64,000 bases of DNA from Candidatus Moraniibacteriota bacterium (GCA_037133435.1 JBAXOD010000004.1:90-64089), one strand, 5' to 3'. Positions 1,948-63,987 are shown, counted from the stretch's first letter. Made by a program: numbers and translations. The notes: generated by a model not told the origin, from the sequence alone.

Positions 1948-2296
1948 AGTATCTCTCTCAAATCTCAACGCCTCTATAAGCCAAAAAATCCGCTTACCGG
2001 CTGAAATCCGAAAATTTCGGCTGCCCGCCTGCAACACTTTGCCTAGCAATGCGGGCAGGCCCGTCCGCAACGATTGCGTAGCGATTCGGGCGGACCCCGA
2101 CCGTCTCGCCAAGCGATCGTCGCGGGCGGGCAAACCATTCAAAAATCGTCAGGTTACGACAGCGGGATCCCCATCTCCTTCGGATACCCGTCCTCGATTT
2201 TCAGGGTTTTTCACCGAGAGGGTGACCAACCTCTGGTTGGCGCTCCTATCGAAATTTTCGGATGTACAGCTCGACATGAGATTTGAGAGAGATACT
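1948..2296. mobile_element. MITE-like element, copy B (~349 bp), with perfect 20-bp TIRs.
   Basis: Starts agtatctctctcaaatctca at 1948 and ends tgagatttgagagagatact at 2296. Internal palindrome ccgcctgcaacactttgcctagcaatgcgggcagg. Confidence 0.65.
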
Positions 2297-2375: not shown

Positions 2376-5330
2376 TCAACGAAGCGCCCGCTTCAGATAC
2401 TCCCCCGTATACGACCCAGAGGTCTTGGCAACGTCTTCGGGCGTGCCGGAAGCGACGATCCTCCCGCCGCCCACGCCACCCTCGGGACCGATGTCAATGA
2501 TCCAATCAGCCGATTTAACGAAATCCATGCTATGTTCGATGACGAGCACCGAGTGCCCTTTGTCCACGAGCCGGTTCAATATCTCCAGGAGTTTCTTCAC
2601 GTCCTCATAGTGCAGGCCGATGGTCGGTTCGTCGAGGAGATACATCGTACGTTCGAGGTGCGGGCGGTAGAGCTCGCTCGCGATTTTTACGCGCTGCGCC
2701 TCACCGCCGGAAAGCGTCGTGGCCGCCTGACCGAGCTGCAGGTAGCCGAGGCCGACCTCTTCGAGCGTGCGCAAGCGGTCGGCGATCGCCGGAATATCCT
2801 TGAAAAAGATATGTGATTCCTCTATCGTCATCGCGAGTATGTCCGCGATGTTCTTGTGCTTGTATTCTATCTCGAGGGTCTCCTTGGTGAAGCGCTTGCC
2901 GTTGCAGACGTCGCACGGCACGTACACCGTCGGCAAAAAGTGCATCTCGACGGCGATGAATCCGTTCCCTTCGCAGGTCTCACACCTGCCACCGGGACGA
3001 TTGAACGAGAAGCGCCCAGCCTTCCACCCGCGGACACGCGCCTCCTCGGTCGAGGCGAACAGGTCGCGGACATGCGTCCACGCGCCGGTATACGTCGCCG
3101 GGTTGGAGCGTGGTGTCCGGCCGATCGGGCTCTGATCGATCAGCACCGCGCGGGACAGGTACTCCGTACCCAAAAACGAGTCGCAGTTCACGACCTTGTT
3201 CGAACGATACCGCCGGTCGAAACGTTTCTGCAAATTCGTCCACAGGATCTCGTAGAGAAACGATGACTTCCCCGAGCCCGACACACCGGTGATCGCGACA
3301 AACCGGCCGAGCGGCACGTCGACAGAGAGGTTTTTGATATTGAAAATATCCCCCCCGCGGACGCGAAGCGTCCCCTTGTCACGGGATCTCCTGATTTTGG
3401 GAATCTCGATCCGTTCCTCGTTTCGCAGGTACGAGAGCGTAAGCGAACCGGATATGTTCTTTTCCGCCAACAAAAGTTCGTCGAGCCACCCCGAGACGAC
3501 GACTTCGCCGCCATGCACTCCGGCCTTGGGGCCCAGGTCCACGAGATAGTCCGACGCGAAAATCGTATCCTCGTCGTGTTCGACGACGATAATCGTATTG
3601 CCGAGGTCGCGCAGACTCTGCAATGTCTTGATGAGCCGGTCATTGTCACGACTATGCAGGCCGATCGTCGGTTCGTCGAGCACATAAAGCGCCCCGACCA
3701 GACGACTCCCAAGCTGGGACGCGAGCCGGATACGCTGTGCCTCGCCGCCGGAAAGCGTATTCGCCCGCCGATCGAGCGTCAGGTATTCCAGTCCCACATC
3801 GAGGAGGAATTCGAGCCGGTTGCCGATCTCGCGGAATACGACCGCCGCGATCTGCCGCTCGCGCTCGGTGAGCGTGATACCGTCGAAGTACGACTTCGCG
3901 TCCGCGATCGTCATACCGGTCAGCTCGACGATATTCTTCCCGCCTGCAACGCTATGCGTTTTTTCTTTTTCAATATTATTTGTCTCATTCAATCCAATAT
4001 TTTCTTTCGGCACATCACTCTTTTTCCGTGTAGCATTGCGGGCAGGACCGCCCACATACACGTAGAGTGCCTCTTCACGGAGTCTCGAACCGTGACAGAC
4101 CTCGCACGGCTCATTGCCGAAGAAGTGCTTGGTGCCGAGTCCGTTACAGGCCGGGCACGCGCCGTACGGCGAGTTGAACGAGAACAGTCGCGGTTCGATC
4201 TCGGGATACGAGAATCCATCGTACGGACAGGAATATTTCGACGAAAGCACCCGGTCTTTCCCACCGATCGTGATACCGATCACGCCTTCGGCTTCCTCGA
4301 GCGCACGGTCCACCGCCTCGCGCAACCGTTCCTCGGACGACTGCGGATACTGTGCGAATTCGCGGAGCGGGATCTCGTCCACGACGAGACTGATATCGTG
4401 TTTCTTGTTCTTGGCCATGACGATCTGCTCTCGCAGGCTGTGACGTTTCCCGTCGATCACCGCCTCGGCGAATCCCTTACCGAGCGCGTCATAAAGAAGC
4501 TGGTAGTATTCCCCTTTGCGCCCGTGCACGACCGGTGCCGTGAGCAGAATCGTATCGGATTTCGCGAGCGTTTTATGTACGGCGATTTCAGCCTTGGCCA
4601 TCTCGCCGACCAAACCCAATATCTCGTCCGGAGCGAGCTTCTCGATCTCGCGCCCGCACACCAGACATCGCGGCCGGCCAAGCCTAGCAAACAGCACGCG
4701 CAGATAATCGTAGATCTCGGTGACGGTCGCGACCGTAGATCGCGGATTGCGCCCCGCCGATTTCTGGTCGATCGAGATAGCCGGCGAAAGCCCCGTGATC
4801 TCGTCAACGTCCGGCTTCTGCATGGTATTCAAAAACTGCCGTGCGTATGCCGAAAGGCTCTCCACGTACCGCCGTTGCCCCTCCGCAAAGATCGTATCGA
4901 ACGCGAGCGACGACTTGCCCGATCCGGAAAGTCCGGTAAACGCGATCATCCGGTTGCGCGGCATCGAGACGGAAATATTCTTCAAATTGTGCGTCCGCGC
5001 GCCCGACACGGTGATCCACTCGCTCGGCTTCCCCGCCTCAATTCTTCCTGCTCCCCTCTCAGAGGGGAGCTGTCGAGTCTGCTTGTCACGTCGCTCGCGA
5101 GCAACGTGATGAAGTGAGGGGTGGTCCCTTCCTACTCCCTTTTCCCTGTCTCCTGCTCCCCTGCCGGAGGGGAGCTGTCTCGTACTCGAGACTGAGGGGT
5201 GGGAGGACTCAACTTCAGACTGTCTCGTTTTTTTCGCCACACCCAAAACCGCCGGTTCCATTTCCGGTTTCATTGCCTTCTTCGCTCGCTTTTCCGCCGC
5301 CTTATCGGCCGCCGTTTTCTTCTTGGTCAT
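2376..5330 (-). CDS. uvrA: Excinuclease ABC subunit A (UvrA), with a Lys-rich N-terminal extension and an internal ~36-aa insertion.
   Basis: Core starts at EWITVSGARTHNLKNISVSMPRNRMIAFTGLSGSGKSSLAFDTIFAEGQRRYVESLSAYARQFL. Two ABC signature regions (LSGGEAQRIRLASQLGS, LSGGEAQRVKIASEL) and zinc-finger cysteines are present. The start is assigned to ATG at 5330 (MTKKKTAADKAAEKRAKK). The true start is uncertain because the region 5049-5203 between that ATG and the conserved core is made of palindromic repeat elements. The track ORF extends to 5519. Confidence 0.9.
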   Translation of the reverse strand: MTKKKTAADKAAEKRAKKAMKPEMEPAVLGVAKKTRQSEVESSHPSVSSTRQLPSGRGAGDREKGVGRDHPSLHHVARERRDKQTRQLPSERGAGRIEAGKPSEWITVSGARTHNLKNISVSMPRNRMIAFTGLSGSGKSSLAFDTIFAEGQRRYVESLSAYARQFLNTMQKPDVDEITGLSPAISIDQKSAGRNPRSTVATVTEIYDYLRVLFARLGRPRCLVCGREIEKLAPDEILGLVGEMAKAEIAVHKTLAKSDTILLTAPVVHGRKGEYYQLLYDALGKGFAEAVIDGKRHSLREQIVMAKNKKHDISLVVDEIPLREFAQYPQSSEERLREAVDRALEEAEGVIGITIGGKDRVLSSKYSCPYDGFSYPEIEPRLFSFNSPYGACPACNGLGTKHFFGNEPCEVCHGSRLREEALYVYVGGPARNATRKKSDVPKENIGLNETNNIEKEKTHSVAGGKNIVELTGMTIADAKSYFDGITLTERERQIAAVVFREIGNRLEFLLDVGLEYLTLDRRANTLSGGEAQRIRLASQLGSRLVGALYVLDEPTIGLHSRDNDRLIKTLQSLRDLGNTIIVVEHDEDTIFASDYLVDLGPKAGVHGGEVVVSGWLDELLLAEKNISGSLTLSYLRNEERIEIPKIRRSRDKGTLRVRGGDIFNIKNLSVDVPLGRFVAITGVSGSGKSSFLYEILWTNLQKRFDRRYRSNKVVNCDSFLGTEYLSRAVLIDQSPIGRTPRSNPATYTGAWTHVRDLFASTEEARVRGWKAGRFSFNRPGGRCETCEGNGFIAVEMHFLPTVYVPCDVCNGKRFTKETLEIEYKHKNIADILAMTIEESHIFFKDIPAIADRLRTLEEVGLGYLQLGQAATTLSGGEAQRVKIASELYRPHLERTMYLLDEPTIGLHYEDVKKLLEILNRLVDKGHSVLVIEHSMDFVKSADWIIDIGPEGGVGGGRIVASGTPEDVAKTSGSYTGEYLKRALR
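3938..4046. repeat. AT-rich palindrome-flanked insertion inside uvrA, kept in frame (encodes ARNATRKKSDVPKENIGLNETNNIEKEKTHSVAGGK).
   Basis: Flanking inverted repeats gcctgcaacgctatgcg ... cgtagcattgcgggcagg resemble the internal palindrome of the MITE family and the one at 61121-61154. The interior is AT-rich, unlike the GC-rich host gene. It falls exactly where E. coli UvrA has no residues (between YVYV and the NIVELTGMTI-like segment). Confidence 0.55.
5049..5125. repeat. REP-like double-hairpin element, family R1, copy a, carrying a nested sub-palindrome. It lies inside the putative uvrA 5' extension, in frame.
   Basis: ctgctcccctctcagaggggagc tgtcgagtctgc ... gaagtgaggggtgg. Nested cacgtcgctcgcgagcaacgtg. 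Confidence 0.55.
5151..5203. repeat. REP-like element, family R1, copy b.
   Basis: tgctcccctgccggaggggagctgtctcgtactcgagactgaggggtgggagg. Confidence 0.55.
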
Positions 5331-5409
5331 CGAGACATGATACCACGGATTAAACAAGATGGCAACAATCAAAAAAACAGTATTTTCACCAAAGAGAATA
5401 GAGCTCACA

Positions 5410-7074
5410 TTATATCTTCTTGGAATGTTCGAGAGTTCCAAGAATAACGAACAAGAACAACAATCCGAAGTTCGAGTCCCAAAGGAAGTGATCGAGAAGA
5501 AGGCTTGGGATGAGTACAAGGAATATTTCTACATTCGGAAAGACAGTTGTTCGTTTGAACGATTCCGGTAACCAGGTTGAGATTCCCGCTCCTCGATGAG
5601 GTCCGAGGACAGGCTTCGCGGGAATGACAACATTTTTGGTTTTCTTTTGCAATGATGACACTTCTCTATTTTTCGGTATGAAAAGTGAAAAGAAAAAACA
5701 CAGCGAAAGGACGAGTCCGGGAATGCCGAGTTCGGAACAAACGAGAAGCAAGACGTCATGGGCGGGTTGGATATCCCAGATCGGACGATCAGGATGTAAT
5801 CGGATCAGTTCCGCTGTCTCGTTTCCTACACCGACTCCGAGGAAGGAATGGGCACGGACGATTTGGAAAGCGTCACGATAGGTCGACATCCGGTCGACGA
5901 CCGATCCTTCCCTATCGACGACTCCCCCGTCGAAACGAGGAAAGACGGTCTCATGCAGTATGCCTGCAAATATCACGGTCGAAATGACGATGGTCGAGAA
6001 ATAAGCACATCTATACCGTCTTGTCATCCCGGGCTTGCCACGGTCGCTCGCGAGCGAACGTGACTTGACCCGGGATCCAGTATTTATAATTTCCTGGATT
6101 CCGGCTCGTAGGCCGGAATGACAAATACATTTGTTCCATGCTGTTTTCAAAGAGAGAAACACAAACCCGAGCGCGAACCCTCCCCACGCGAGACGGGAAA
6201 AAGAAACAATGAGACCCAGAAGAATGATGAGGATACCGAAGAGACTTGCGACCCATTGAAAATAAGCATACCAACCACACCCCTCCTCAATCCTCACCAC
6301 ACAAAGAGGAGGAGGCAAAAATTTTCCAAGCCATGTTAATGTATTATAGTTGCAAATATTTAAGGTTGCCCGCTCCCCTTTCAGAGGGGAGCTGTCGAGT
6401 CTGCGAGACTGAGGGGTGAGAACAAAGGAATCAATCCGCTCAGTTACTATCAACAGAACCACCGCAAGAAACAGCCCGTATAAGTTCGGATGGGGAAAGG
6501 TTCCATACGCTCGCAGGAACCGTCCCGTATCGTTCTTCAACACCGACGTCCCCGACTGCCACGATTCGTATGCGCTCGTCCCGAGAAGCGTCGAAGAAAA
6601 CGTCTCCTGCGTCAGGAATTGTCCGATTCCGATGACTGACTGGATCATTGCCGCCACGAAGAGCACCAAGACGATTTGTTTCATCTTCCCCCGTCGTACC
6701 AGATCACGCGTCATAATGAACGCATCCGCGGCGAGCAGGATCTTCACGAACGTATACCCGGCCAAAGCAGTATCCTGCGCCCAGATGATCGACAGACCCG
6801 ACCAGAGAACGAAAAGCAGAAGAAACGCATCTGACTTTCGCTCCCGCCACATTTTTTTCATCCGGACACCGATGGATTCGCTTTTCAATGCCTTCGCCTT
6901 CAGTAGCGCTCCGAGAACGATCGCACACGCCAGAACCAAGGATGACGCATATATCCCGATCGTCCCGTACTGCCACTTCCCACCCCCGATAATCGGCTCA
7001 CGCCACAAATACACCGTCTGGAACGGTAGGATGAAGAGGAACAGGAAAAAGAGATCGTCCTGAAGCTTTTGCAT
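5410..7074 (-). CDS. O-antigen ligase / Wzy_C-family polymerase-ligase. The 554-aa ORF contains two in-frame palindromic-element insertions.
   Basis: C-terminal half has the Wzy_C signature SFSRLAWGGFALGFVFL ... DRMSTYRDAFQIVRAHSFLGVGVGNETAELIRLHPDRPIWDIQPAHDVLLLVCSELGIPGL. It is a polytopic membrane protein. Region 6000-6420 of the ORF is built from repeat elements R2 (6020-6082) and R1 (6372-6420) without breaking the frame. Confidence 0.7.
   Translation of the reverse strand: MQKLQDDLFFLFLFILPFQTVYLWREPIIGGGKWQYGTIGIYASSLVLACAIVLGALLKAKALKSESIGVRMKKMWRERKSDAFLLLFVLWSGLSIIWAQDTALAGYTFVKILLAADAFIMTRDLVRRGKMKQIVLVLFVAAMIQSVIGIGQFLTQETFSSTLLGTSAYESWQSGTSVLKNDTGRFLRAYGTFPHPNLYGLFLAVVLLIVTERIDSFVLTPQSRRLDSSPLKGERATLNICNYNTLTWLGKFLPPPLCVVRIEEGCGWYAYFQWVASLFGILIILLGLIVSFSRLAWGGFALGFVFLSLKTAWNKCICHSGLRAGIQEIINTGSRVKSRSLASDRGKPGMTRRYRCAYFSTIVISTVIFAGILHETVFPRFDGGVVDREGSVVDRMSTYRDAFQIVRAHSFLGVGVGNETAELIRLHPDRPIWDIQPAHDVLLLVCSELGIPGLVLSLCFFFSLFIPKNREVSSLQKKTKNVVIPAKPVLGPHRGAGISTWLPESFKRTTVFPNVEIFLVLIPSLLLDHFLWDSNFGLLFLFVILGTLEHSKKI
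6020..6082. repeat. Palindromic element, family R2, copy a (hairpin gtcatcccgg...ccgggatccagt with nested cgctcgcgagcg).
   Basis: cttgtcatcccgggcttgccacggtcgctcgcgagcgaacgtgacttgacccgggatccagtattt. A related copy lies at 35136-35167. The tail CCAGTATTTAT recurs at 34862 and 60972. Confidence 0.5.
6372..6420. repeat. REP-like element, family R1, copy c (inside the ligase ORF).
   Basis: cgctcccctttcagaggggagctgtcgagtctgcgagactgaggggtgag. Confidence 0.55.
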
Positions 7075-26545: not shown

Positions 26546-26810
26546 TAGCATTTCTAAATATTATTCCCTATACGATTGTGTTTGCGAGCCCGCACTCGGG
26601 CTGCCTGCCCCGCGCATGCCAGGGTGGCAATTCAGCCCCCTCGGTCTTTGCGAGGGAGTCCTCGACCGCGGCAATCCAGAATGAGAGAATATGACATGAA
26701 CCGCCACATCTCACCTTTCGCGAAAGGCGGAACTCGCGGAGACAAAGGGAGCAGATTTCTTAGAAATGGTAAAATCATCACTTTCACTCGATCCGACTCA
26801 GTTCGTAAAT

Positions 26811-26846
26811 GTTACATCTGATACGCTATCGCGTATCAGATGTAAC
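26811..26846. repeat. 36-bp perfect palindrome, variant of the 40-bp palindrome family (compensatory arm changes).
   Basis: gttacatctgatacgctatcgcgtatcagatgtaac vs gttacatttgctacgctatcgcgtagcaaatgtaac at 62657 and 63948. Confidence 0.6.
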
Positions 26847-26919
26847 TCCGAATGACCCTGTTTTCAACCAATAAGACATAATATATCCCCTGATTCCGGT
26901 TCGATGCTTTACTGATTCC

Positions 26920-26968: not shown

Positions 26969-27034
26969 GCGCATTCCTGAACAACACAGCTAACCAAAAA
27001 AAAGACACACTGAGTGTCCGAGGTTTCTCTTCTT

Positions 27035-27362
27035 AGTATCTATCTCAAATCTCACCACGATAATAAGCCAAAAAATCCGTTTGTCGTCTGAAATCCGTAC
27101 ATTTCGGCTGCCCGCCCGAATCGCTACGCGAAGCGTTGCGGGCGGGCCCAGACCGTCTCGCCAAGCGATCGTCGCGGGCGGGCCCAGACCGTCTCGCCAA
27201 GCGATCGTCGCGGGCGGGCCCAGACCGTCTCGCCAAGCGATCGTCGCGGGCGGACAAACCCTTCAAATCTCCTCGGGTTACGACAGTAGCCCTCGACGAT
27301 TTTCAGTGTTTTCGCTCGAAATGTACGGATTTCAGTTCGACATGAGATTTGAGAGAGATACT
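27035..27362. mobile_element. MITE-like element, copy C (~328 bp), containing a 36-bp x3 internal tandem repeat.
   Basis: TIRs agtatctatctcaaatctca / tgagatttgagagagatact. Internal (cccagaccgtctcgccaagcgatcgtcgcgggcggg) x3 at about 27140-27250. Confidence 0.65.
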
Positions 27363-27369
27363 TATTCCT

Positions 27370-27747
27370 TTACGAAAAATGTCGGATTTCGCGAACGGAT
27401 AGCCATTGTTTGAAATAGGTGCACCGCCCTGCCTCGTCGAGAGAAACCTGAAAAATGCCGTCCATCTCCACCCGGTTCCCGGTAGCTAAGACCGTTCTCG
27501 TCAGTCGAAAATGAATGATGCCGCATTTCTCGTTCTCCGCAAGAATCTCGTATGAATACTCGATATCCTTCTGATATTCCGGCGCGACTTCCCAGAGTCT
27601 CCGGATCGCATGGATATCCAGGCAAGGTTTGTCGAAAACCGTCTCATAATATGCACAATCCTCCGCGATCGTCGACATGACCCGCTCGACATCGCGGTTC
27701 TTCCAACCCTCCATGAACGCGTCCATCCATGCACTATATTTATTCAT
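27370..27747 (-). CDS. NTF2-like / SnoaL-like small protein.
   Basis: 125 aa, MNKYSAWMDAFMEGWKNRDVERVMSTIAEDCAYYETVFDKP... pattern. Confidence 0.4.
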   Translation of the reverse strand: MNKYSAWMDAFMEGWKNRDVERVMSTIAEDCAYYETVFDKPCLDIHAIRRLWEVAPEYQKDIEYSYEILAENEKCGIIHFRLTRTVLATGNRVEMDGIFQVSLDEAGRCTYFKQWLSVREIRHFS

Positions 27748-34771: not shown

Positions 34772-35294
34772 ATTTTTTCATTGTTGAATGATTTCATTAT
34801 CATGCCATTTCTCAATTATGCACTCCCTGTAAGGCTGTCTTTGCGAGCCCGTACTCGGGCGTGGCAATCCAGTATTTATGGCAGAGATCTGGACCGCCAC
34901 AGATTTCCGAAGACGAAAATCTTCGCGGAGACGGAGGAAACGGGGGGGTCTTATCTTGGGAATGGTATCTCATTGTTGGATTGATACACGGCTACATTGC
35001 AACACTACTACGCCACTTGTTGCATTGTCTCATTGTTTCATTGTCGAATCAATCCATACGATGCTCATCCGATGCTCATCCATCCATTTCTCACTCAATG
35101 AACTACCCCGCGGCAAGCCACGAGGTATCCCCCGACTTGTCATCCCGGACTTGATCCGGGATCCAGTCCCACTCCGTGAGACATATCCGCGGCGAGCAGC
35201 GAGGAATTAACCCTAAAAAAGATTAACTGTAACCCTAGAAAACAACGATTATGGCTAAAGAGAGCCATATTTACTTAGACATTAGTGCCGAACA

Positions 35295-36070: not shown

Positions 36071-36174
36071 AGGTTATCGACAAAATACATTTGAATTCAG
36101 ATTTCGACTCCGTACCGCAGTCGAAATCCAATACACCGATACAAACCTTACATTGGAAATTGATTAATATCACC

Positions 36175-36226
36175 TGCTCCCCTTTCGGAGGGGAGCTCCT
36201 GAATCTTCGAGGGTGAGGGGTGGGAG
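36175..36226. repeat. REP-like element, family R1, copy d.
   Basis: ctgctcccctttcggaggggagctcctgaatcttcgagggtgaggggtgggag. Confidence 0.55.
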
Positions 36227-36337
36227 AAATTCCATATGTCGCCACGCTGTAGCCTCGACACAAGTCGATTCCCTGCCCGCTCATCCCTACAAGCGGGTCC
36301 GTTCACTTCGCCTTGCGGTGATGTAGCGGATTATCTG

Positions 36338-58057: not shown

Positions 58058-59110
58058 TTATCGTGAACCACCGCGTTTCACCACCCGCACCACCCCGTGA
58101 TCCGCGTCCACCTCGACCAGGTCGCCGTCACGGAGGACCTGTGTCGCGAACTTGGTTCCGATGATACAGGGCTTGCCCATCTCGCGTGCGACGATGGACG
58201 CATGGCACGTGATACCGCCCTCGTCGGTGACGAATGCGGCGGCTTGTTTCATGGCGGGAAGGAAATCCGGCGTCGTCATGGGCGACACGAGAATATCCCC
58301 GTCATGCACCGCATCCATATCACTTTGCTTCCGCACGATACGCACGACACCGGTTACGACGCCCTTGCAGGCAGACTGGCCCTCCAGTTCATTCCGATCG
58401 ATCACCGCTTCGGTTTCAAAGACGTATTCCGGATGGGTCGCGACGTATTCATCGATCGTACCGAGTTTCGCCTCTTTGCCGTCTATCAGGAGATACGATT
58501 TCAACCGTCGTTCCAGAATTTCCGCAAACGGAATATTTTCCACCTCGTCCGGCAATACGACTCCGGCCGCCTCGGAGGAAATTCCTGCCAATCCGGAAAT
58601 CTCCGTGCGCACGAACGCATCGTTGTCCGCGAAAAAGTCTGCGATCTCACGGGCACGAACGGCAACTTCCTGAGCCTCATCCGGACTCCTCTCGTCCGTT
58701 CCGGTATAGTAAAACAACGTCATGCGGAGCGCGGCATAAGAGATCGCGTCTGCATAATCCTTCCGGCCCGAAGGAGAAGAAAAGCAGTCTTTCCCGCGAA
58801 GGGTCTCGATATTTTGAAGCACTTCCACGTATTCCTCGAATACCTTTCCGAGAAACGCAGTCCCCTTCCGATTCTCCTCGAGCAACCGGTCCAAGAACCA
58901 CCGCATACCCGTTTGGTGTTCCCAGATTTCCACGACGCCATCACGGACGAAATGTCCGACCAACGGCAGATAGGGATTCTTCCAACCGAATGCCTCTTCG
59001 GTTCCGTGTGAAAGCGTCCCGGCCCAGAGCGCCTGCATATAGAGGGTCGTATCTCTGGAATTGGCTTTCTCGAATCGAAGTGACGGAGCGGGATGTACAA
59101 CGTTCGACAT
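58058..59110 (-). CDS. PEP-utilizers swivel-domain protein (middle domain plus phosphohistidine domain), the partner of the ATP-grasp protein upstream.
   Basis: DGDILVSPMTTPDFLPAMKQAAAFVTDEGGITCHASIVAREMGKPCIIGTKFATQVLRDGDLVEVDADHGVV. Start taken at MSNVVHPAPSL. Confidence 0.7.
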   Translation of the reverse strand: MSNVVHPAPSLRFEKANSRDTTLYMQALWAGTLSHGTEEAFGWKNPYLPLVGHFVRDGVVEIWEHQTGMRWFLDRLLEENRKGTAFLGKVFEEYVEVLQNIETLRGKDCFSSPSGRKDYADAISYAALRMTLFYYTGTDERSPDEAQEVAVRAREIADFFADNDAFVRTEISGLAGISSEAAGVVLPDEVENIPFAEILERRLKSYLLIDGKEAKLGTIDEYVATHPEYVFETEAVIDRNELEGQSACKGVVTGVVRIVRKQSDMDAVHDGDILVSPMTTPDFLPAMKQAAAFVTDEGGITCHASIVAREMGKPCIIGTKFATQVLRDGDLVEVDADHGVVRVVKRGGSR

Positions 59111-59151
59111 AAGGATATATCGAAAAAATATGATCGGGCGACGGAAGACGA

Positions 59152-60114
59152 TCAGTCTTCCTTCGTCGTGCCGCCGGCAAGTGTGGTGATCGGACGTGAC
59201 TGGACGATATGGAATGCGCTCCCTTCGTACGCCCACTCGATGTCGCATGGGAATCCGTAATGATTTTCGATCCGCATGACGATGTCGGCGAGTTCAAGAA
59301 CCAGGGTATCATCGAGTTTCCGGTCCGAGCCGTGCTCACCGAGGTCACGCCATTCGTTCCCGCCGTCTTCCTTGCGGTAGATGCCGCGTGTCTGGTCGCT
59401 CACGTTCACGTCGAGGATATTCCGACCTTTTTTTGAGATAACATAGGAATCCGGGGTGATCTGCCCGGAGACGATCGCCTCGCCCAGTCCGAAGCCGGCC
59501 TCGATGATGATCTGATCATGATCCTCGGTCACCGGATGGACGGAAAACGCGATCCCACTCACCTCGGACTCGATCATTTTTTGCACGACGACCGCTACCG
59601 ACACACGTGAATCACGGAGGCCCTGTTCAAGGCGGTAGAAGATGGCCCGCGGGGTGAAAAGCGAGGCGAAACAGCGTTTCACGTTTCGCAGCAGGGTCGC
59701 CTCGGTGGTATTGAGGAAAGAATCGAGCTGTCCCGCCCACGCGGCCGACGCCGAGTCCTCGGCGGTCGCCGAAGAACGCACCGCAACGAACTTCGCGTCG
59801 AGCTCGATAAACGCATCCGTGACCGCTTTCGCGATATCTTCTGGCATGTTTGCTTCCAAAATGTGCTTCTGTATGCGTTCGCTCGCGTACTCGACCGTGT
59901 GAATCTGATCACGGTTCACATCATTGAGTTCACTTTCGATCTCCTGCACGAGATCCGCTTCCGCAAGAAACCGCTCAAACGCATCCGTAAGGATGACGAA
60001 TCCCTGCGGAACAGGAATACCGGCCTGTGTCATTTCGCCGAGCGATGCGCCCTTGCCCCCGGCGATACCGGCGTCGCTTTTCGAGAGAGAAGCAAAAGGA
60101 AGGATATAGGCCAT
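59152..60114 (-). CDS. Stand-alone PPDK_N-type ATP-grasp nucleotide-binding domain protein (PEP synthase / rifampin phosphotransferase N-domain-like).
   Basis: DAGIAGGKGASLGEM ... FAVRSSATAEDSASAAWAGQ ... DIEWAYEGSAFHIVQSRPIT (canonical domain end). Start taken at MAYILPF. Confidence 0.75.
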   Translation of the reverse strand: MAYILPFASLSKSDAGIAGGKGASLGEMTQAGIPVPQGFVILTDAFERFLAEADLVQEIESELNDVNRDQIHTVEYASERIQKHILEANMPEDIAKAVTDAFIELDAKFVAVRSSATAEDSASAAWAGQLDSFLNTTEATLLRNVKRCFASLFTPRAIFYRLEQGLRDSRVSVAVVVQKMIESEVSGIAFSVHPVTEDHDQIIIEAGFGLGEAIVSGQITPDSYVISKKGRNILDVNVSDQTRGIYRKEDGGNEWRDLGEHGSDRKLDDTLVLELADIVMRIENHYGFPCDIEWAYEGSAFHIVQSRPITTLAGGTTKED

Positions 60115-60826: not shown

Positions 60827-61120
60827 AGTGAGTGGTCAGTAATCAGTTATCAGTGAGCATGAAACATTGAACAGGTGGCAGCAAATAGATAAGCGGAACA
60901 GGCTGCCCGAGTACCTCATAACAAAGACCGAAGGAACTTTTTTTTATCTGTCTCCGCGAGGATGTAGTCATCCGTGGCGGTCCAGTATTTTGTTCTCTGT
61001 TCCCTGCATCGCCACGCCGTAGCTTTGTCGAAGGCGGGCATCGCCACGCCGGAGTCTTAGCGGAGATGGGTTTTCTGTTTTAAAAACTGGATTGCCACGC
61101 CTCGCAGAATCGTCTCACAC

Positions 61121-61154
61121 CCGCCTGCAACGCTTTGCGAAGCAATGCGGGCAG
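61121..61154. repeat. Palindrome related to the MITE internal hairpin.
   Basis: ccgcctgcaacgctttgcgaagcaatgcgggcagg. Confidence 0.5.
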
Positions 61155-61183
61155 GAAGACCGAAGGGGTCTGTTCCCTTCCGC

Positions 61184-61210
61184 CTGTTATCTGTTATCTG
61201 TTATCTGTTA
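61184..61210. repeat. (CTGTTAT)x4 heptamer tandem repeat spanning the proS stop codon.
   Basis: ctgttatctgttatctgttatctgtta. Confidence 0.6.
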
Positions 61211-62438
61211 AATATTCCACGAGTTCGGACAATTTGACCATCTCGGTTTCTTCACTCGTCCGACGTTTCACCTCCGCTTCACCGTTTTCTGCGGAACGCT
61301 TGCCGATTACGACCCGGTACGGGATACCCAACAAGTCGCTGTCCGCGAATTTTTCTCCCGCGCGCGCGTCCCGATCGTCATAGAGCACCTCGACACCCGC
61401 GTCGAGCAGCGTCCGATACGCCGCATCGGCTTCCTCGTCCGCCCCGAGCGACAGGAGGTGTACCCTGAAAGGCGCGATCGCCTCGGGCCAGACGAGTCCT
61501 TTTTCATCCGAAAATTGCTCAACCACGATTCCCATGAGCCGAGTGATGCCGATACCGTATGATCCAAGAATCACCGGTTTCTGACTCCCGTCCTCATCCT
61601 TGAAGAAGAGTCCGAGTTGCTCGCATTTCGTCCCGCCGAAACTGAAGATATTTCCCACCTCGACCGCTTTCACTTCCTCGAGCGTCTCACGGTCCAACCC
61701 GAGTTGTGTGACCACCTCGTCCGTCAGCACTTCCTGATTGATCGCGATCTTCTTGTTCCGATCGAGATAGATGACATCTTCCCCAACAGACGAAATCGTC
61801 TGAAATTCATGACTGAACTGCGTGAACGCTCCTCCCGAAGCAAAGGTCAAAAAGGTCGAATCACCGAGTCCGACGCGCTCGAAGACGCGTAGGTATGCCG
61901 CGATTGCACTGTCATAAAAAGCCTTGTGATCCTCTTCCGTGCGACTGTACGAATACAGGTCCTTCATCACAAACTCACGCCCCCGCATGATGCCGGATTT
62001 CGCCCGAAGCTCGTTTCGCAGTTTCGTCTGAAATTGATATCCGTAGACCGGCAAATCCCGATAGCTCGAGATATAGTTCCGCATCATATCCGTGATCGGC
62101 TCCTCGTGCGACCAGCCGAACCCGACCTGCCCGCCGTTCTTGAGCTCCGATTTGAACCACACATCGACCTTGCGGTCGTCCCATCGATCCGTTTTCTCCC
62201 AGAGTTCCTTCCGCTGAAGCGACGTCATGATGAACTCCTGACACCCCAGCGCGTTCATTTCTTCCCTGACGATTCCCTTGATCTTCTCGATTACCCGAAG
62301 CCCGAGCGGCATATAGGCATACACCCCGGCCATCTCCTTGTGGACGTACCCGGCCCGGATCAAGAGCTGCGCATTGCGGCTTTCCTCGTCCTTGGGCGCC
62401 TCCCGCCGCGACCGGGTGAACAGCTGGCTTTGTCTCAT
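61194..62438 (-). CDS. proS: Prolyl-tRNA synthetase, short bacterial form lacking the INS editing domain.
   Basis: MRQSQLFTRSRREAPKDEESRNAQLLIRAGYVHKEMAGVYAYMPLGLRV. Class II motifs present. About 415 aa. Confidence 0.85.
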   Translation of the reverse strand: MRQSQLFTRSRREAPKDEESRNAQLLIRAGYVHKEMAGVYAYMPLGLRVIEKIKGIVREEMNALGCQEFIMTSLQRKELWEKTDRWDDRKVDVWFKSELKNGGQVGFGWSHEEPITDMMRNYISSYRDLPVYGYQFQTKLRNELRAKSGIMRGREFVMKDLYSYSRTEEDHKAFYDSAIAAYLRVFERVGLGDSTFLTFASGGAFTQFSHEFQTISSVGEDVIYLDRNKKIAINQEVLTDEVVTQLGLDRETLEEVKAVEVGNIFSFGGTKCEQLGLFFKDEDGSQKPVILGSYGIGITRLMGIVVEQFSDEKGLVWPEAIAPFRVHLLSLGADEEADAAYRTLLDAGVEVLYDDRDARAGEKFADSDLLGIPYRVVIGKRSAENGEAEVKRRTSEETEMVKLSELVEYLTDNR

Positions 62439-62463
62439 ATCGGCTAAAATTAACAATAGTACC

Positions 62464-62516
62464 CGCTCCCCTGCCAGAGGGGAGCTCCTCGGCTTTGCGA
62501 GGTGAGAGGTGGGAGC
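62464..62516. repeat. REP-like element, family R1, copy e.
   Basis: cgctcccctgccagaggggagctcctcggctttgcgaggtgagaggtgggagc. Confidence 0.55.
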
Positions 62517-62656
62517 AGATTTTTTGCCTCAAATATATACAATCCTAGCCCCTTTTCCTTCCCATCATACCCGAATGCTACACTCGGGTCAAAAAAGAGC
62601 CCATCCTATATAGGATGGCTTTCCCAATTTCCCGCCGCATATCCCCCCCACAACCA

Positions 62657-62696
62657 AAGTTACATTTGCTACGCTATCGCGTAGCAAATGTAACTT
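62657..62696. repeat. 40-bp perfect palindrome, copy 1.
   Basis: aagttacatttgctacgctatcgcgtagcaaatgtaactt, preceded by aaccaa. Confidence 0.7.
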
Positions 62697-62928: not shown

Positions 62929-63768
62929 TCAAAATCCACTGCGGGAGGCCACGGCACGCAAAACCGAGAACGAGCCAACCGGCGTGACCCCGAACACGCA
63001 CGCGCCAAGCGCGCCCGCATCGCCGAAGCAAACGAGGCTGCCGTCGGTCGAAGGGGAAGATGACCATGAATAGAAATCCCTGAATAACTTTTCACCGGTA
63101 CAGCCATGGACGATCAGGTACCGGAAAAATGTGTTTTGCACGGGTTCCCGAAGAAGACGGACGATATCAAGGACGGTAAGGAAAAGTGTCGTAGCAGCAT
63201 TGTTCCCTTGTTCCAGCAGTTGATACGCAACCTTCCGCTCGTATCCTTCCCATTTCGATATCGCTGTTTGCAATGCCCGTGGAAGGCGGCCGCTCAACAG
63301 ACTTTCCATGTTTCCAATCAGAACATCCGTCTGACTGATAAAGTTTTCTCTTGCCGTACCAGCTACCTCTTCGGGTGACACAAATTGCCATCCGCTCCGG
63401 AGTACAGTAGAAGAAACAAGCAAGTCATTTTTCATCCAAGCTCTCTCTTCGTAGTTCCCACTCTCTTCGAATTGGTCACCCCACAGCAATCCCGCGGGAA
63501 GCGAACTCACAACAGACGAATACCAAGTCGCCATCTTCTCGAGCGTTATCGGTGTGTTCTGTAGCCGGTTCGGATAGCAGAACCGAACCGGATAGCAGAT
63601 CAGCATATGCCCCGCTTCTGCATGCAGTTCATAGTCTTTCGACGTCCAGTATCCCGGAAGCGGATCGTCTTTCGGACGGAAACCGAACACCTGTTCGGTC
63701 TGGTCGTCAGCATAGAATTTCTTCCCGAATATGCTTTGTGCATCGGGTATGGTCATTTTGATATCCAT
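62929..63768 (-). CDS. Hypothetical protein (279 aa). GC content is lower than the surrounding genes.
   Basis: ORF MDIKMTIPDAQSIFGKKFYADDQTEQ... with no recognisable family. It is flanked by identical 40-bp palindromes. Confidence 0.45.
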   Translation of the reverse strand: MDIKMTIPDAQSIFGKKFYADDQTEQVFGFRPKDDPLPGYWTSKDYELHAEAGHMLICYPVRFCYPNRLQNTPITLEKMATWYSSVVSSLPAGLLWGDQFEESGNYEERAWMKNDLLVSSTVLRSGWQFVSPEEVAGTARENFISQTDVLIGNMESLLSGRLPRALQTAISKWEGYERKVAYQLLEQGNNAATTLFLTVLDIVRLLREPVQNTFFRYLIVHGCTGEKLFRDFYSWSSSPSTDGSLVCFGDAGALGACVFGVTPVGSFSVLRAVASRSGF

Positions 63769-63947
63769 CGCTCATCTCCGTTTTAAGGTTCATACAGCCA
63801 GCGAATGCTGACCAGACAGAATAGCGTTTTTATACGATTTGTCAATGATACTTTTTTTACTTCCTTTTATAATCCTCGTATGTTCTTCGGTAACGAAATG
63901 CTTCCAAAACGATGCGCTTCTCTCTCCTTCACATAAACCCAACCAAA

Positions 63948-63987
63948 AAGTTACATTTGCTACGCTATCGCGTAGCAAATGTAACTT
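63948..63987. repeat. 40-bp perfect palindrome, copy 2 (identical to 62657-62696, including the aaccaa(a) 5' flank).
   Basis: aagttacatttgctacgctatcgcgtagcaaatgtaactt. Confidence 0.7.

Follow-up and report, generated by a model that had tools for sequence, protein, structure and literature searches.

How can palindromic repeats lie inside two intact genes and leave both reading frames open? The question is raised by uvrA and its neighbour, a gene for an O-antigen-ligase-family (Wzy_C) protein, on a stretch of 64,000 nucleotides (nt) from a Candidatus Moraniibacteriota metagenome-assembled genome (MAG; GCA_037133435.1 JBAXOD010000004.1:90-64089). We call the whole stretch the window, and positions are counted from its first letter. 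The host belongs to the candidate phyla radiation (CPR)/Patescibacteria group. In-frame palindromic passengers are a known curiosity of Rickettsia and a few other bacteria. The original prediction, made from the sequence, was that the repeats of the window behave like Rickettsia palindromic elements (RPEs). Ortholog alignments, a frame census and structure models bore this out, and the elements that had been named lie at, or within a few bases of, the places first given for them. The description of the host as a high-GC organism did not hold: the window, at 54% G+C, is only moderately GC-rich. The segments are probably copies of at least four small dispersed palindromic repeat families (R1, R3, R4 and D8), which inserted into, or expanded within, tolerant loops and linkers and would be translated through.

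Insertions in uvrA and the ligase gene

The uvrA coding sequence (2376-5330, minus strand, 984 residues) is host to three repeat insertions and has Pfam matches to UvrA_inter and ABC_tran. Its product is 100% identical to an annotated Moraniibacteriota UvrA, and uvrA is called as a gene on the source contig (ENA ERZ4200879, NODE_223), which is 64,559 bp long and nearly all of which is covered by the window. The ligase coding sequence (5410-7074, minus strand, 554 residues), identified by a Pfam Wzy_C match, alignment and gene call, has three insert regions, and its protein is present in public collections at 100% identity. The possibility that the ligase open reading frame (ORF) is two genes or a pseudogene falls away, since it encodes a single uninterrupted Wzy_C protein of 554 residues, and 17 homologs align with it at either end. 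All inserts in the two genes have lengths divisible by three, are free of stop codons in the frame used and lie in low-confidence loops or linkers between helices or domains. Their presence is patchy among orthologs of 48-95% identity. The expectation of lineage-specific segments was right as regards this patchiness, but not for R1, which crosses phyla.

The internal uvrA insert (3939-4046, minus strand) encodes residues 429-464 (GG/PARNAT...HSVAGG/KNIV). As originally described, it is bounded by inverted repeats and adds 36 residues; its length is 108 nt, not 109. Two 18-nt hairpin arms of the D8 family (CCCGCCTGCAACGCTATGCG and GTAGCATTGCGGGCAGG) enclose a 72-nt AT-rich interior, no repeat of which was found anywhere in the sampled DNA. 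The predicted fold has a free energy of -26.7 kcal/mol (z -3.9). In an alignment of 23 UvrA proteins the insert is missing in the four closest relatives (P0002-P0005, 92-95% identity), and besides the window only two proteins carry it. P0006 (88% identity) has clearly the same insert with 35 residues, and in P0011 (80% identity) an insert with an interior of repeated 18-nt half-units (PARNAS PARNAL PARNAS...) occupies exactly this site. The insert is 108, 105 and 90 nt long in three genomes.

At the DNA level the empty site reads GTG GGC GGG AAG and the filled site GGC GGT / CCTGCCCGCAATGCTAC ... GCATAGCGTTGCA GGCGGG / AAG; the empty site of the relative L001 holds a single GGCGGG. Comparison of the filled and empty sites indicates that a 6-bp direct repeat brackets the insert. 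Its upstream copy, read from the sequence, is GGCGGT in the sense strand (4047-4052, minus strand), and the second copy, GGCGGG, forms the final 6 nt of the insert (3939-3944). The insert of the window differs from that of L002 by 2 synonymous and about 8 non-synonymous changes and a one-codon deletion; the frame is thus kept although the sequence is unconstrained. Alignment to the Geobacillus UvrA structure (2r6f) places the insert directly after the second zinc module, and its AlphaFold2 confidence (predicted local distance difference test, pLDDT) is 25-33. In the same comparison the two halves of zinc module 2 of the window UvrA are directly joined. The window UvrA and its Moranbacteria relatives have about 115 residues fewer than 2r6f at residues ~401-403, which by the published domain boundaries are presumably the UvrA insertion domain.

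Two R1 copies had been placed between the uvrA start and the conserved core, and both were found there. Copy A (5149-5207, plus strand, antisense to uvrA; SSHPSVSSTRQLPSGRGAG, residues 42-61) scores 78.1 bits (E 1e-21) with the R1 covariance model. Copy B (5044-5130, plus strand; residues 67-96) has an R4 hairpin nested in its P2 hairpin at 5085-5110, a net addition of 27 nt, and the same arrangement occurs in L001 and L094. A true start downstream of R1 would have made the open frame coincidental. Both copies, however, lie 3' of every canonical in-frame start codon, and the N-terminus MTKKKTAADKAA is common to 12 UvrA orthologs, with and without R1. The valine codon just ahead of the UvrA core is GTC or GTT in relatives and is therefore no start. 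The start is upstream of R1. The distance from the ATG to the GARTHNLK motif is 351, 351, 216, 255 and 267 nt in five genomes, always a multiple of three, and the orthologs have two, one, no or more than two R1 copies. The EAGKPSEWI residues directly after R1 are conserved as protein in UvrA; the junction peptide as encoded is ...ESSHPSVSSTR / QLPSGR.... The N-terminal extension of the window UvrA is Lys-rich and 55-100 residues long.

In the ligase gene the R1 copy and the element originally called R2 are indeed crossed without stop or frameshift, at 6366-6424 and 6021-6080, but the latter proved to be a hairpin of R3 type whose loop encloses another hairpin. Three further elements (6094-6124, 5579-5630 and 6272-6318) had been overlooked. 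The first extra region (residues ~217-268) consists of R1 copy C, an AT-rich stretch and an R1-like relic. Copy C (plus strand, antisense to the ligase gene; LTPQSRRLDSSPLKGERA, residues 217-237; 75.4 bits) is read in a frame different from that of the uvrA copies (TPQSRRLDSSPLKGERA). The relic (6272-6318, minus strand; CCTCCTC..GAGGAGG..GGGGTG; LPPPLCVVRIEEG, residues 253-268) is degenerate and its assignment tentative, the covariance match being weak (E 0.9); it is common to P0122, P0123 and P0125.

The second region (residues 317-352) is made up of R3a (TTGTCATCCCGGG..CCCGGGATCCAG; plus strand, with an R4 hairpin at 6038-6063 nested in its loop) and R3b (CTGGATTCCGGC..GCCGGAATGACAA; 6094-6124, plus strand), which is inverted relative to R3a. 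The composite RNA fold has a free energy of -54.5 kcal/mol (z -7.4). P0122, P0124, P0133 (54% identity) and P0136 (48%) have the R3 pair (CHPGLDPGS...DSGSKAGMT); P0123, P0126 and P0127 lack it. The third region, a 37-residue insert near the C-terminus (residues ~471-508), contains R3c (5579-5630, plus strand), again with a small nested hairpin, and was found only in the window in the comparison with the 17 homologs. Across uvrA and the ligase gene the nested additions amount to 27 and 30 nt. All three inserts, copy C included, are missing in P0128-P0158; these empty sites are known at the protein level. The junction peptide as encoded is ...TPQSRRLDSSPLK.... In the AlphaFold model (predicted template modelling score 0.72) pLDDT falls below 50 at residues 219-266, 317-350 and 489-511, between confident transmembrane helices.

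R3 and D8 are also found outside genes. A solo R3 hairpin lies at 35137-35170 (plus strand), and 36-nt hairpin units of the family of the uvrA insert arms lie at 2024-2059 (plus strand), 27111-27146 and 61120-61155, with a tandem array of 36-nt D8 units at 27139-27250, all intergenic.

R1 as a dispersed element

R1 is 47-48 nt long and consists of a C-arm, a loop, a G-arm, a covarying hairpin (P2) and a G-rich tail that mirrors the G-arm. The C-arm/G-arm hairpin (GCTCCCCT-N5-AGGGGAGC) is invariant in all copies. Compensatory changes occur in all six P2 pairs (54 double-change cells), and none of 500 shuffles reached the covariation score. The hairpin pattern has 5 matches in the window, against 0 expected from 100 shuffles, and a covariance model built from R1 copies detected the same number, all on the plus strand. 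Five copies had been counted before; two of them, not three, are intergenic, and three of the five are inside ORFs. The first intergenic copy (36170-36228, plus strand, 70 bits) has no long ORF across it. The second (62459-62517, plus strand, 63.7 bits) abuts the start of a class II aminoacyl-tRNA synthetase gene (61194-62456, minus strand; Pfam). Rfam searches of the whole window at the gathering threshold, and of 4950-6500 at an E-value threshold, found no family for R1, with chance-level matches only, and a scan of the window for tRNA and tmRNA genes found none. Hammerhead, twister, pistol, hepatitis delta virus and group II domain V ribozymes were considered as identities of R1 and rejected by inspection and Rfam.

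One genome per bacterial species was scanned with the pattern GCTCCCCT-N5-AGGGGAGCT-N12-20-TGAGGGGTG, which has 26 fixed bases, and at least 107 stretches contained it. The copy counts, hosts, frames and neighbours given below for other genomes are among the matches listed. The Moraniibacteriota MAG ELA282 has about 20 copies and MAG bin-413 has 14. Other hosts in the Patescibacteria are Taylorbacteria, Paceibacteria, Falkowbacteria and Nomurabacteria. Beyond CPR, R1 occurs in Bacteroidales UBA2939, Muribaculaceae, Prevotellaceae, several Clostridia/Oscillospiraceae MAGs, Victivallales, Kiritimatiellae, Margulisiibacteriota, Bdellovibrionales and the isolate Bifidobacterium catulorum. Viral contigs yielded only 3 matches, so phages are no obvious vector.

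In loci of CPR type, 37 of 63 R1 copies are inside stop-free ORFs of at least 150 residues. The census of their frames (anti0 18, anti1 6, anti2 5, same0 3, same1 5, same2 0), a check suggested with the original prediction, came out as selection against stops would have it: R1 is read in five of six possible frames, and the unused one, same2, is the frame in which the R1 tail has a conserved TGA. In 29 of these copies R1 is oriented antisense to its host gene; open frames would lead one to expect 60% (binomial p = 0.015). R1 lies between Pfam domains in CPR genes for leucyl-tRNA synthetase (LeuRS; two copies), UvrB, the phenylalanyl-tRNA synthetase beta chain (PheT, where it is inside the tRNA-binding domain), valyl- and alanyl-tRNA synthetases and TsaD. 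It does so also in radical-SAM/SPASM and GH20 proteins of Bacteroidales and an AraC-type regulator of UBP6. L001 and L080 carry the UvrB insert, each with its own R1 subtype and flanks, and L002 does not.

A wider census of host proteins could not be based on the R1 peptide: a 58-residue R1-containing peptide, too short for this purpose, had only 5 matches at E <= 0.001 among 1.84 billion representative proteins, and a word-indexed protein search with a 60-residue R1-peptide concatemer gave no candidates. Literature searches with R1 sequence strings, or for CPR and palindromic repeats, found nothing relevant.

R1 also occurs in tandem, with a 48-nt period. The Clostridia and Bacteroidales MAGs L110 and L108 have arrays of 168-nt and 99-nt period, and R1 there lies very frequently at the ends of contigs, apparently as part of longer high-copy repeats that break assemblies. 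Heptamer arrays (ACTCACT, GNAGTGA, TCCCYNN, TAAACCY) adjoin R1 copies, or the outer ends of the gene cassettes described below, in L005, L059, L063, L077 and L104, and those of L104 are translated inside LeuRS. A further in-frame copy was seen in a reverse-transcriptase-like ORF (L027, ~6319-6366; Moranbacteria RIFCSPLOWO2_12_FULL_48_12), between conserved reverse-transcriptase blocks and with a YADD motif downstream.

A DUF559 nuclease gene between R1 copies

When 1995 ORFs located up to 2.5 kb from an R1 copy were clustered, there was a sole recurrent neighbour that is not explained by synteny, a protein of about 115 residues with a DUF559 domain (PF04480). It scores 94.7-127.5 bits, against a Pfam cut-off of 20.6, and also matches E. 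coli YcjD (PRK09767) and, weakly, Vsr. Residues D53, E64, D66 and H70 are invariant. In the Moranbacteria loci L005, L029/L081, L077 and L117 the gene is part of a cassette of about 466 bp, in which a forward R1 is followed after 12-30 nt by the ORF (ATG...TAA) and, after about 10 nt, by an inverted R1. L059 resembles this layout, with the left R1 about 130 nt from the gene; in L072 the R1 geometry around the gene is reversed, and in Phascolarctobacterium (L011) R1 follows the gene. The cassette adjoins rsmI in three of these Moranbacteria genomes and tatD in ELA282.

Relatives of the gene were examined at 80 metagenomic loci, where weak matches to the R1 model pile up at the gene borders. Significant terminal inverted repeats were present in 27 of 64 testable genes, and most of the 15 highest-scoring ones, when inspected, consisted of a C-arm/G-arm hairpin and then a G-rich segment. 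A motif detector of this simple design (C-arm, G-arm, G-segment) found 5.27 motifs per kb in the DUF559 flanks, 0.20 per kb elsewhere and 0.49 per kb in distant intergenic DNA. The enrichment beside the genes is about 11-fold (Poisson p ~1e-116), and 71 of the 80 loci have at least one motif.

The ycjD gene of E. coli K-12 ends in a BoxC-like hairpin, which overlaps its stop codon, and about 170 nt downstream the ycjD-fabI spacer contains a TMECO-type element. This interval (L197, NC_000913.3 1351040-1351410) also holds a partial duplicate of the ycjD 3' end, ahead of the BoxC/TMECO element. BoxC was reportedly first described at this locus. To our knowledge the BoxC/PIT repeats have been without a function or means of spread since the 1990s, and we know of no DUF559 protein that is a transposase. 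None of ten window proteins has a transposase domain, no RAYT (Y1/HUH) gene or other transposase gene was found in the window or near R1 copies, and our search found no paper linking DUF559 to repeats.

We infer from this arrangement that the DUF559 nuclease may mobilise the repeats. A wider proposal, plausible although short of probable, is that DUF559 proteins (YcjD-like, with a Vsr fold) supply, for BoxC/PIT/triplex-motif repeats in all of Bacteria, the partner enzyme that has been missing, as a PD-(D/E)XK equivalent of the RAYT-REP pair. The ~466-bp cassette would then seed solo repeats, which in CPR genomes, where intergenic DNA is very scarce, would survive largely as in-frame passengers of essential genes. 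The association provides a concrete hypothesis for the function and spread of BoxC/PIT, testable in E. coli, which has both ycjD and BoxC.

Known repeat systems and competing explanations

RPEs (Ogata et al. 2000, as reviewed in Delihas 2011, PMC3184786) are about 105-146 bp long and confined to Rickettsia. The elements described here resemble them in being palindromes that are dispersed in intergenic DNA and also inserted, in frame and without stops, in genes including housekeeping genes, in small genomes and in presumably tolerant surface regions. They are set apart by size and host, with 47-48 nt for R1, 36 nt for D8 and about 30 nt for R3 in Moraniibacteriota; R1, moreover, has a BoxC-like three-segment design and spans many phyla, and several of the families nest in one another. 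Judged by these comparisons, the likeness to RPEs is one of analogy and not of homology.

The design of R1 is that of the BoxC repeats of E. coli and other Proteobacteria, to which the names PIT and TMECO were given afterwards: a C-rich arm, a short loop of 3-6 nt, a complementary G-rich arm and a second G-rich segment, in highly conserved multi-copy elements that often form inverted pairs. The TMECO consensus is CCCTCNCCC-N3-6-GGGNGAGGG-N3-GGGNGAGGG, with a second loop of 3 nt, and in vitro work demonstrated that it folds into an intrastrand purine-motif triplex (Holder et al. 2015, PMC4666352). The sequence of R1 is a different one, and in place of the 3-nt loop R1 has a covarying hairpin of 12-20 nt between two T residues; its layout suggests that it may form a triplex too. 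The R1 segment GAGGGGT mirrors AGGGGAG at 7 of 7 positions if A to T is allowed, against 3 of 7 for a direct repeat. In the wider family flanking DUF559 genes the mirror, direct and shuffled rules gave 188, 160 and 144 hits, and the mirror rule was not statistically separable from G-richness. Holder and colleagues report 23 TMECO copies in MG1655 and 3610 in 262 proteobacterial genomes, describe the element as intergenic without exception, with no tie to genes or mobile elements, and connect it with local genome instability (PMC4666352), whereas R1 is often genic and flanks DUF559 genes. By its layout R1 is a hairpin-bearing variant of a cross-phylum BoxC/PIT-like repeat family.

REP/REPIN-RAYT systems (Bertels and Rainey 2011, PMC3116915) share with R1 the short, GC-rich, multi-copy hairpins with compensatory changes and the small nuclease-type gene between two inverted copies. 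However, RAYT is an HUH/Y1 (IS200-like) enzyme and the gene found here is of the PD-(D/E)XK, Vsr-like DUF559 type, and repetitive extragenic palindromes (REPs) are extragenic by definition whereas R1 is often inside ORFs. The BRE repeats of Betaproteobacteria and the pneumococcal BOX, RUP and SPRITE repeats (Delihas 2011, PMC3184786) are likewise small and non-autonomous and are fused in frame, internally or at ORF ends; they differ in sequence, size and taxa, and reports mention neither a CPR host nor a BoxC-like design for any of them. [quoted passage not shown] The cyanobacterial SDR and STRR heptamers, reportedly described by Elhai and colleagues in 2008 as tiny hairpins that insert into one another beside heptamer arrays, offer a lead only, the sequences being unrelated. 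Internal in-frame insertion of repeats is a known kind of event, as the RPE, BRE and pneumococcal examples illustrate (Delihas 2011, PMC3184786). What is new here is the CPR host group, the number of essential genes hit, the identification of the main element as a BoxC/PIT variant shared across phyla, and a candidate partner nuclease.

In the explanation that we prefer, R1, R3, R4 and D8 copies would insert or expand in tolerant loops and linkers of both proteins, also nesting in each other's hairpin loops, and the ribosome would translate through them. The surviving copies would be those with a length divisible by three and no stop in the frame used, each adding a short Pro/Ser/Gly/Arg-rich peptide to a disordered region; they would persist for these reasons, and selection would remove out-of-frame copies. 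A DUF559 nuclease, or structure-induced errors of replication or repair, would spread the repeats. The inserts are presumably translated and not removed from the mRNA, and are neutral or slightly deleterious passengers, we infer; their distribution suggests that the elements are selfish and mobile.

Several observations weigh against parts of this explanation. Translation of the inserts is a prediction from the sequence. The UvrA model is poor (mean pLDDT 58), with its lowest segments in the N-terminal extension and the insert, and the placement in a surface loop therefore comes mainly from the alignment to solved UvrA structures. The ligase ortholog P0125 (JGI contig, 42.9 kb), which has the same R3a hairpin without the nested R4, ends inside the R3 pair owing to a 1-nt deletion in R3b relative to the window, which suggests that inserts can be harmful; P0125 is either a repeat-induced pseudogene or a sequencing error. 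The window has no DUF559 gene, and no R1-flanked DUF559 gene was found in the sampled chunks of the R1-rich Bacteroidales UBA2939 and Clostridia MAGs. For R1 no target-site duplication could be defined, the flanks being hypervariable. ELA282, the closest genome available, has all five R1 copies of the window in the same places, so R1 shows no recent movement. Finally, a neutral parasite does not need conservation as strict as 26 identical bases in different phyla, which may be the sign of a function or of an enzyme that imposes strong constraint.

As to how the repeats spread, the main rival explanation dispenses with a dedicated enzyme: hairpin or triplex DNA would stall replication, units would be copied by template switching, slippage and gene conversion, and DUF559 would merely sit in, or home into, unstable repeat doublets. 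Holder et al. (2015, PMC4666352) tie BoxC/TMECO repeats to local instability and found them unconnected with mobile elements, and the 36-nt and 48-nt tandem arrays and adjoining heptamer arrays look like slippage products. The 6-bp direct repeat flanking the uvrA insert and the opposite R1 geometry around the L072 gene agree with this mode, and the different R1 subtypes at the same UvrB site in L001 and L080 fit gene conversion. It would nevertheless leave unexplained both the same 26 bases in distant phyla and the ~11-fold enrichment, mostly as inverted pairs, at DUF559 genes, and we consider it unlikely. That the inserts serve the host, their peptides (e.g. HPSV..GQLPSGRGAG) or mRNA hairpins acting as flexible linkers, translation pause sites or mRNA-stability elements, would suit the strong conservation of R1, the covariation of P2 and the antisense bias (29 of 37, p = 0.015), and the GGGGAG of the R1 at 62459, abutting a start codon, could act as a ribosome-binding site. 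This is improbable, however, as R1 is read in five frames to give unrelated peptides, the closest orthologs of essential genes lack the inserts, the uvrA insert evolves in its interior free of amino-acid constraint, and the same elements occur in intergenic DNA in either position relative to genes.

Removal of the hairpins from the mRNA in the manner of introns, for example by an endonuclease and an RtcB-type ligase, would be in keeping with the stable stem-loop of each element, whose base joins flanking exon-like sequence, with the RtcB gene next to the ligase gene in related contigs and with the out-of-frame version in P0125. Excised sequence would escape constraint on length and stops, yet all other genic copies examined are stop-free, have lengths divisible by three and differ by in-frame indels, and Rfam gave no ribozyme or intron family matches. 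We know of no bacterial mechanism for such removal, and regard it as very improbable. Hardly credible is an artefact of assembly or annotation, or the decay of both genes to pseudogenes. The contig comes from a MAG at about 8x coverage and repeats often cause misassembly, but insertions at the same sites, with sequence divergence, appear in independent ENA, JGI and NCBI assemblies, and both ORFs are intact with conserved domains in frame on both sides.

If the repeats are in-frame passengers, as we prefer to think, such passengers recur in an unrelated small-genome group, in UvrA, UvrB, four aminoacyl-tRNA synthetases and TsaD of CPR. Repeat inserts would account for some of the unexplained "insertions" in CPR proteins, and annotators and structure predictors should be warned that such segments are repeat-derived.

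Some minor features of the window and its relatives remain to be described. In relatives (L112 and the P0128 contig) the gene that comes after the ligase gene is not uvrA but one for the RNA ligase RtcB, so a local rearrangement accounts for the ligase-uvrA adjacency of the window. A tandem heptamer array (GTTGTAA / GTTGTGA / GTTGCAG...) directly follows the uvrA stop codon (2325-2376). Composite repeats of about 350 bp, bounded by inverted repeats of 22-28 nt (TAAGTATCTCTCTCAAATCTCA), lie at 1273-2300 and 27030-27370; the ends at 1946-1967 and 2277-2298 are 100% complementary. These composites hold arrays of 36-nt D8-like hairpins and resemble MITEs built from small hairpin units. Near-perfect 41-nt palindromes (AAAGTTACATTTGCTACGCTATCGCGTAGCAAATGTAACTT) are located at 62656-62696, 63947-63987 and 26808-26848. 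Two identical ones flank a 279-residue ORF (62929-63768, minus strand) that has no Pfam match, and may mark another repeat-flanked gene cassette. Between 46067 and 58308 there are four to five diverged copies (61-77% identity) of a segment of 113-224 nt, which represent a paralogous gene family; the member at 58058-59248 has a PEP-utilisers mobile domain.

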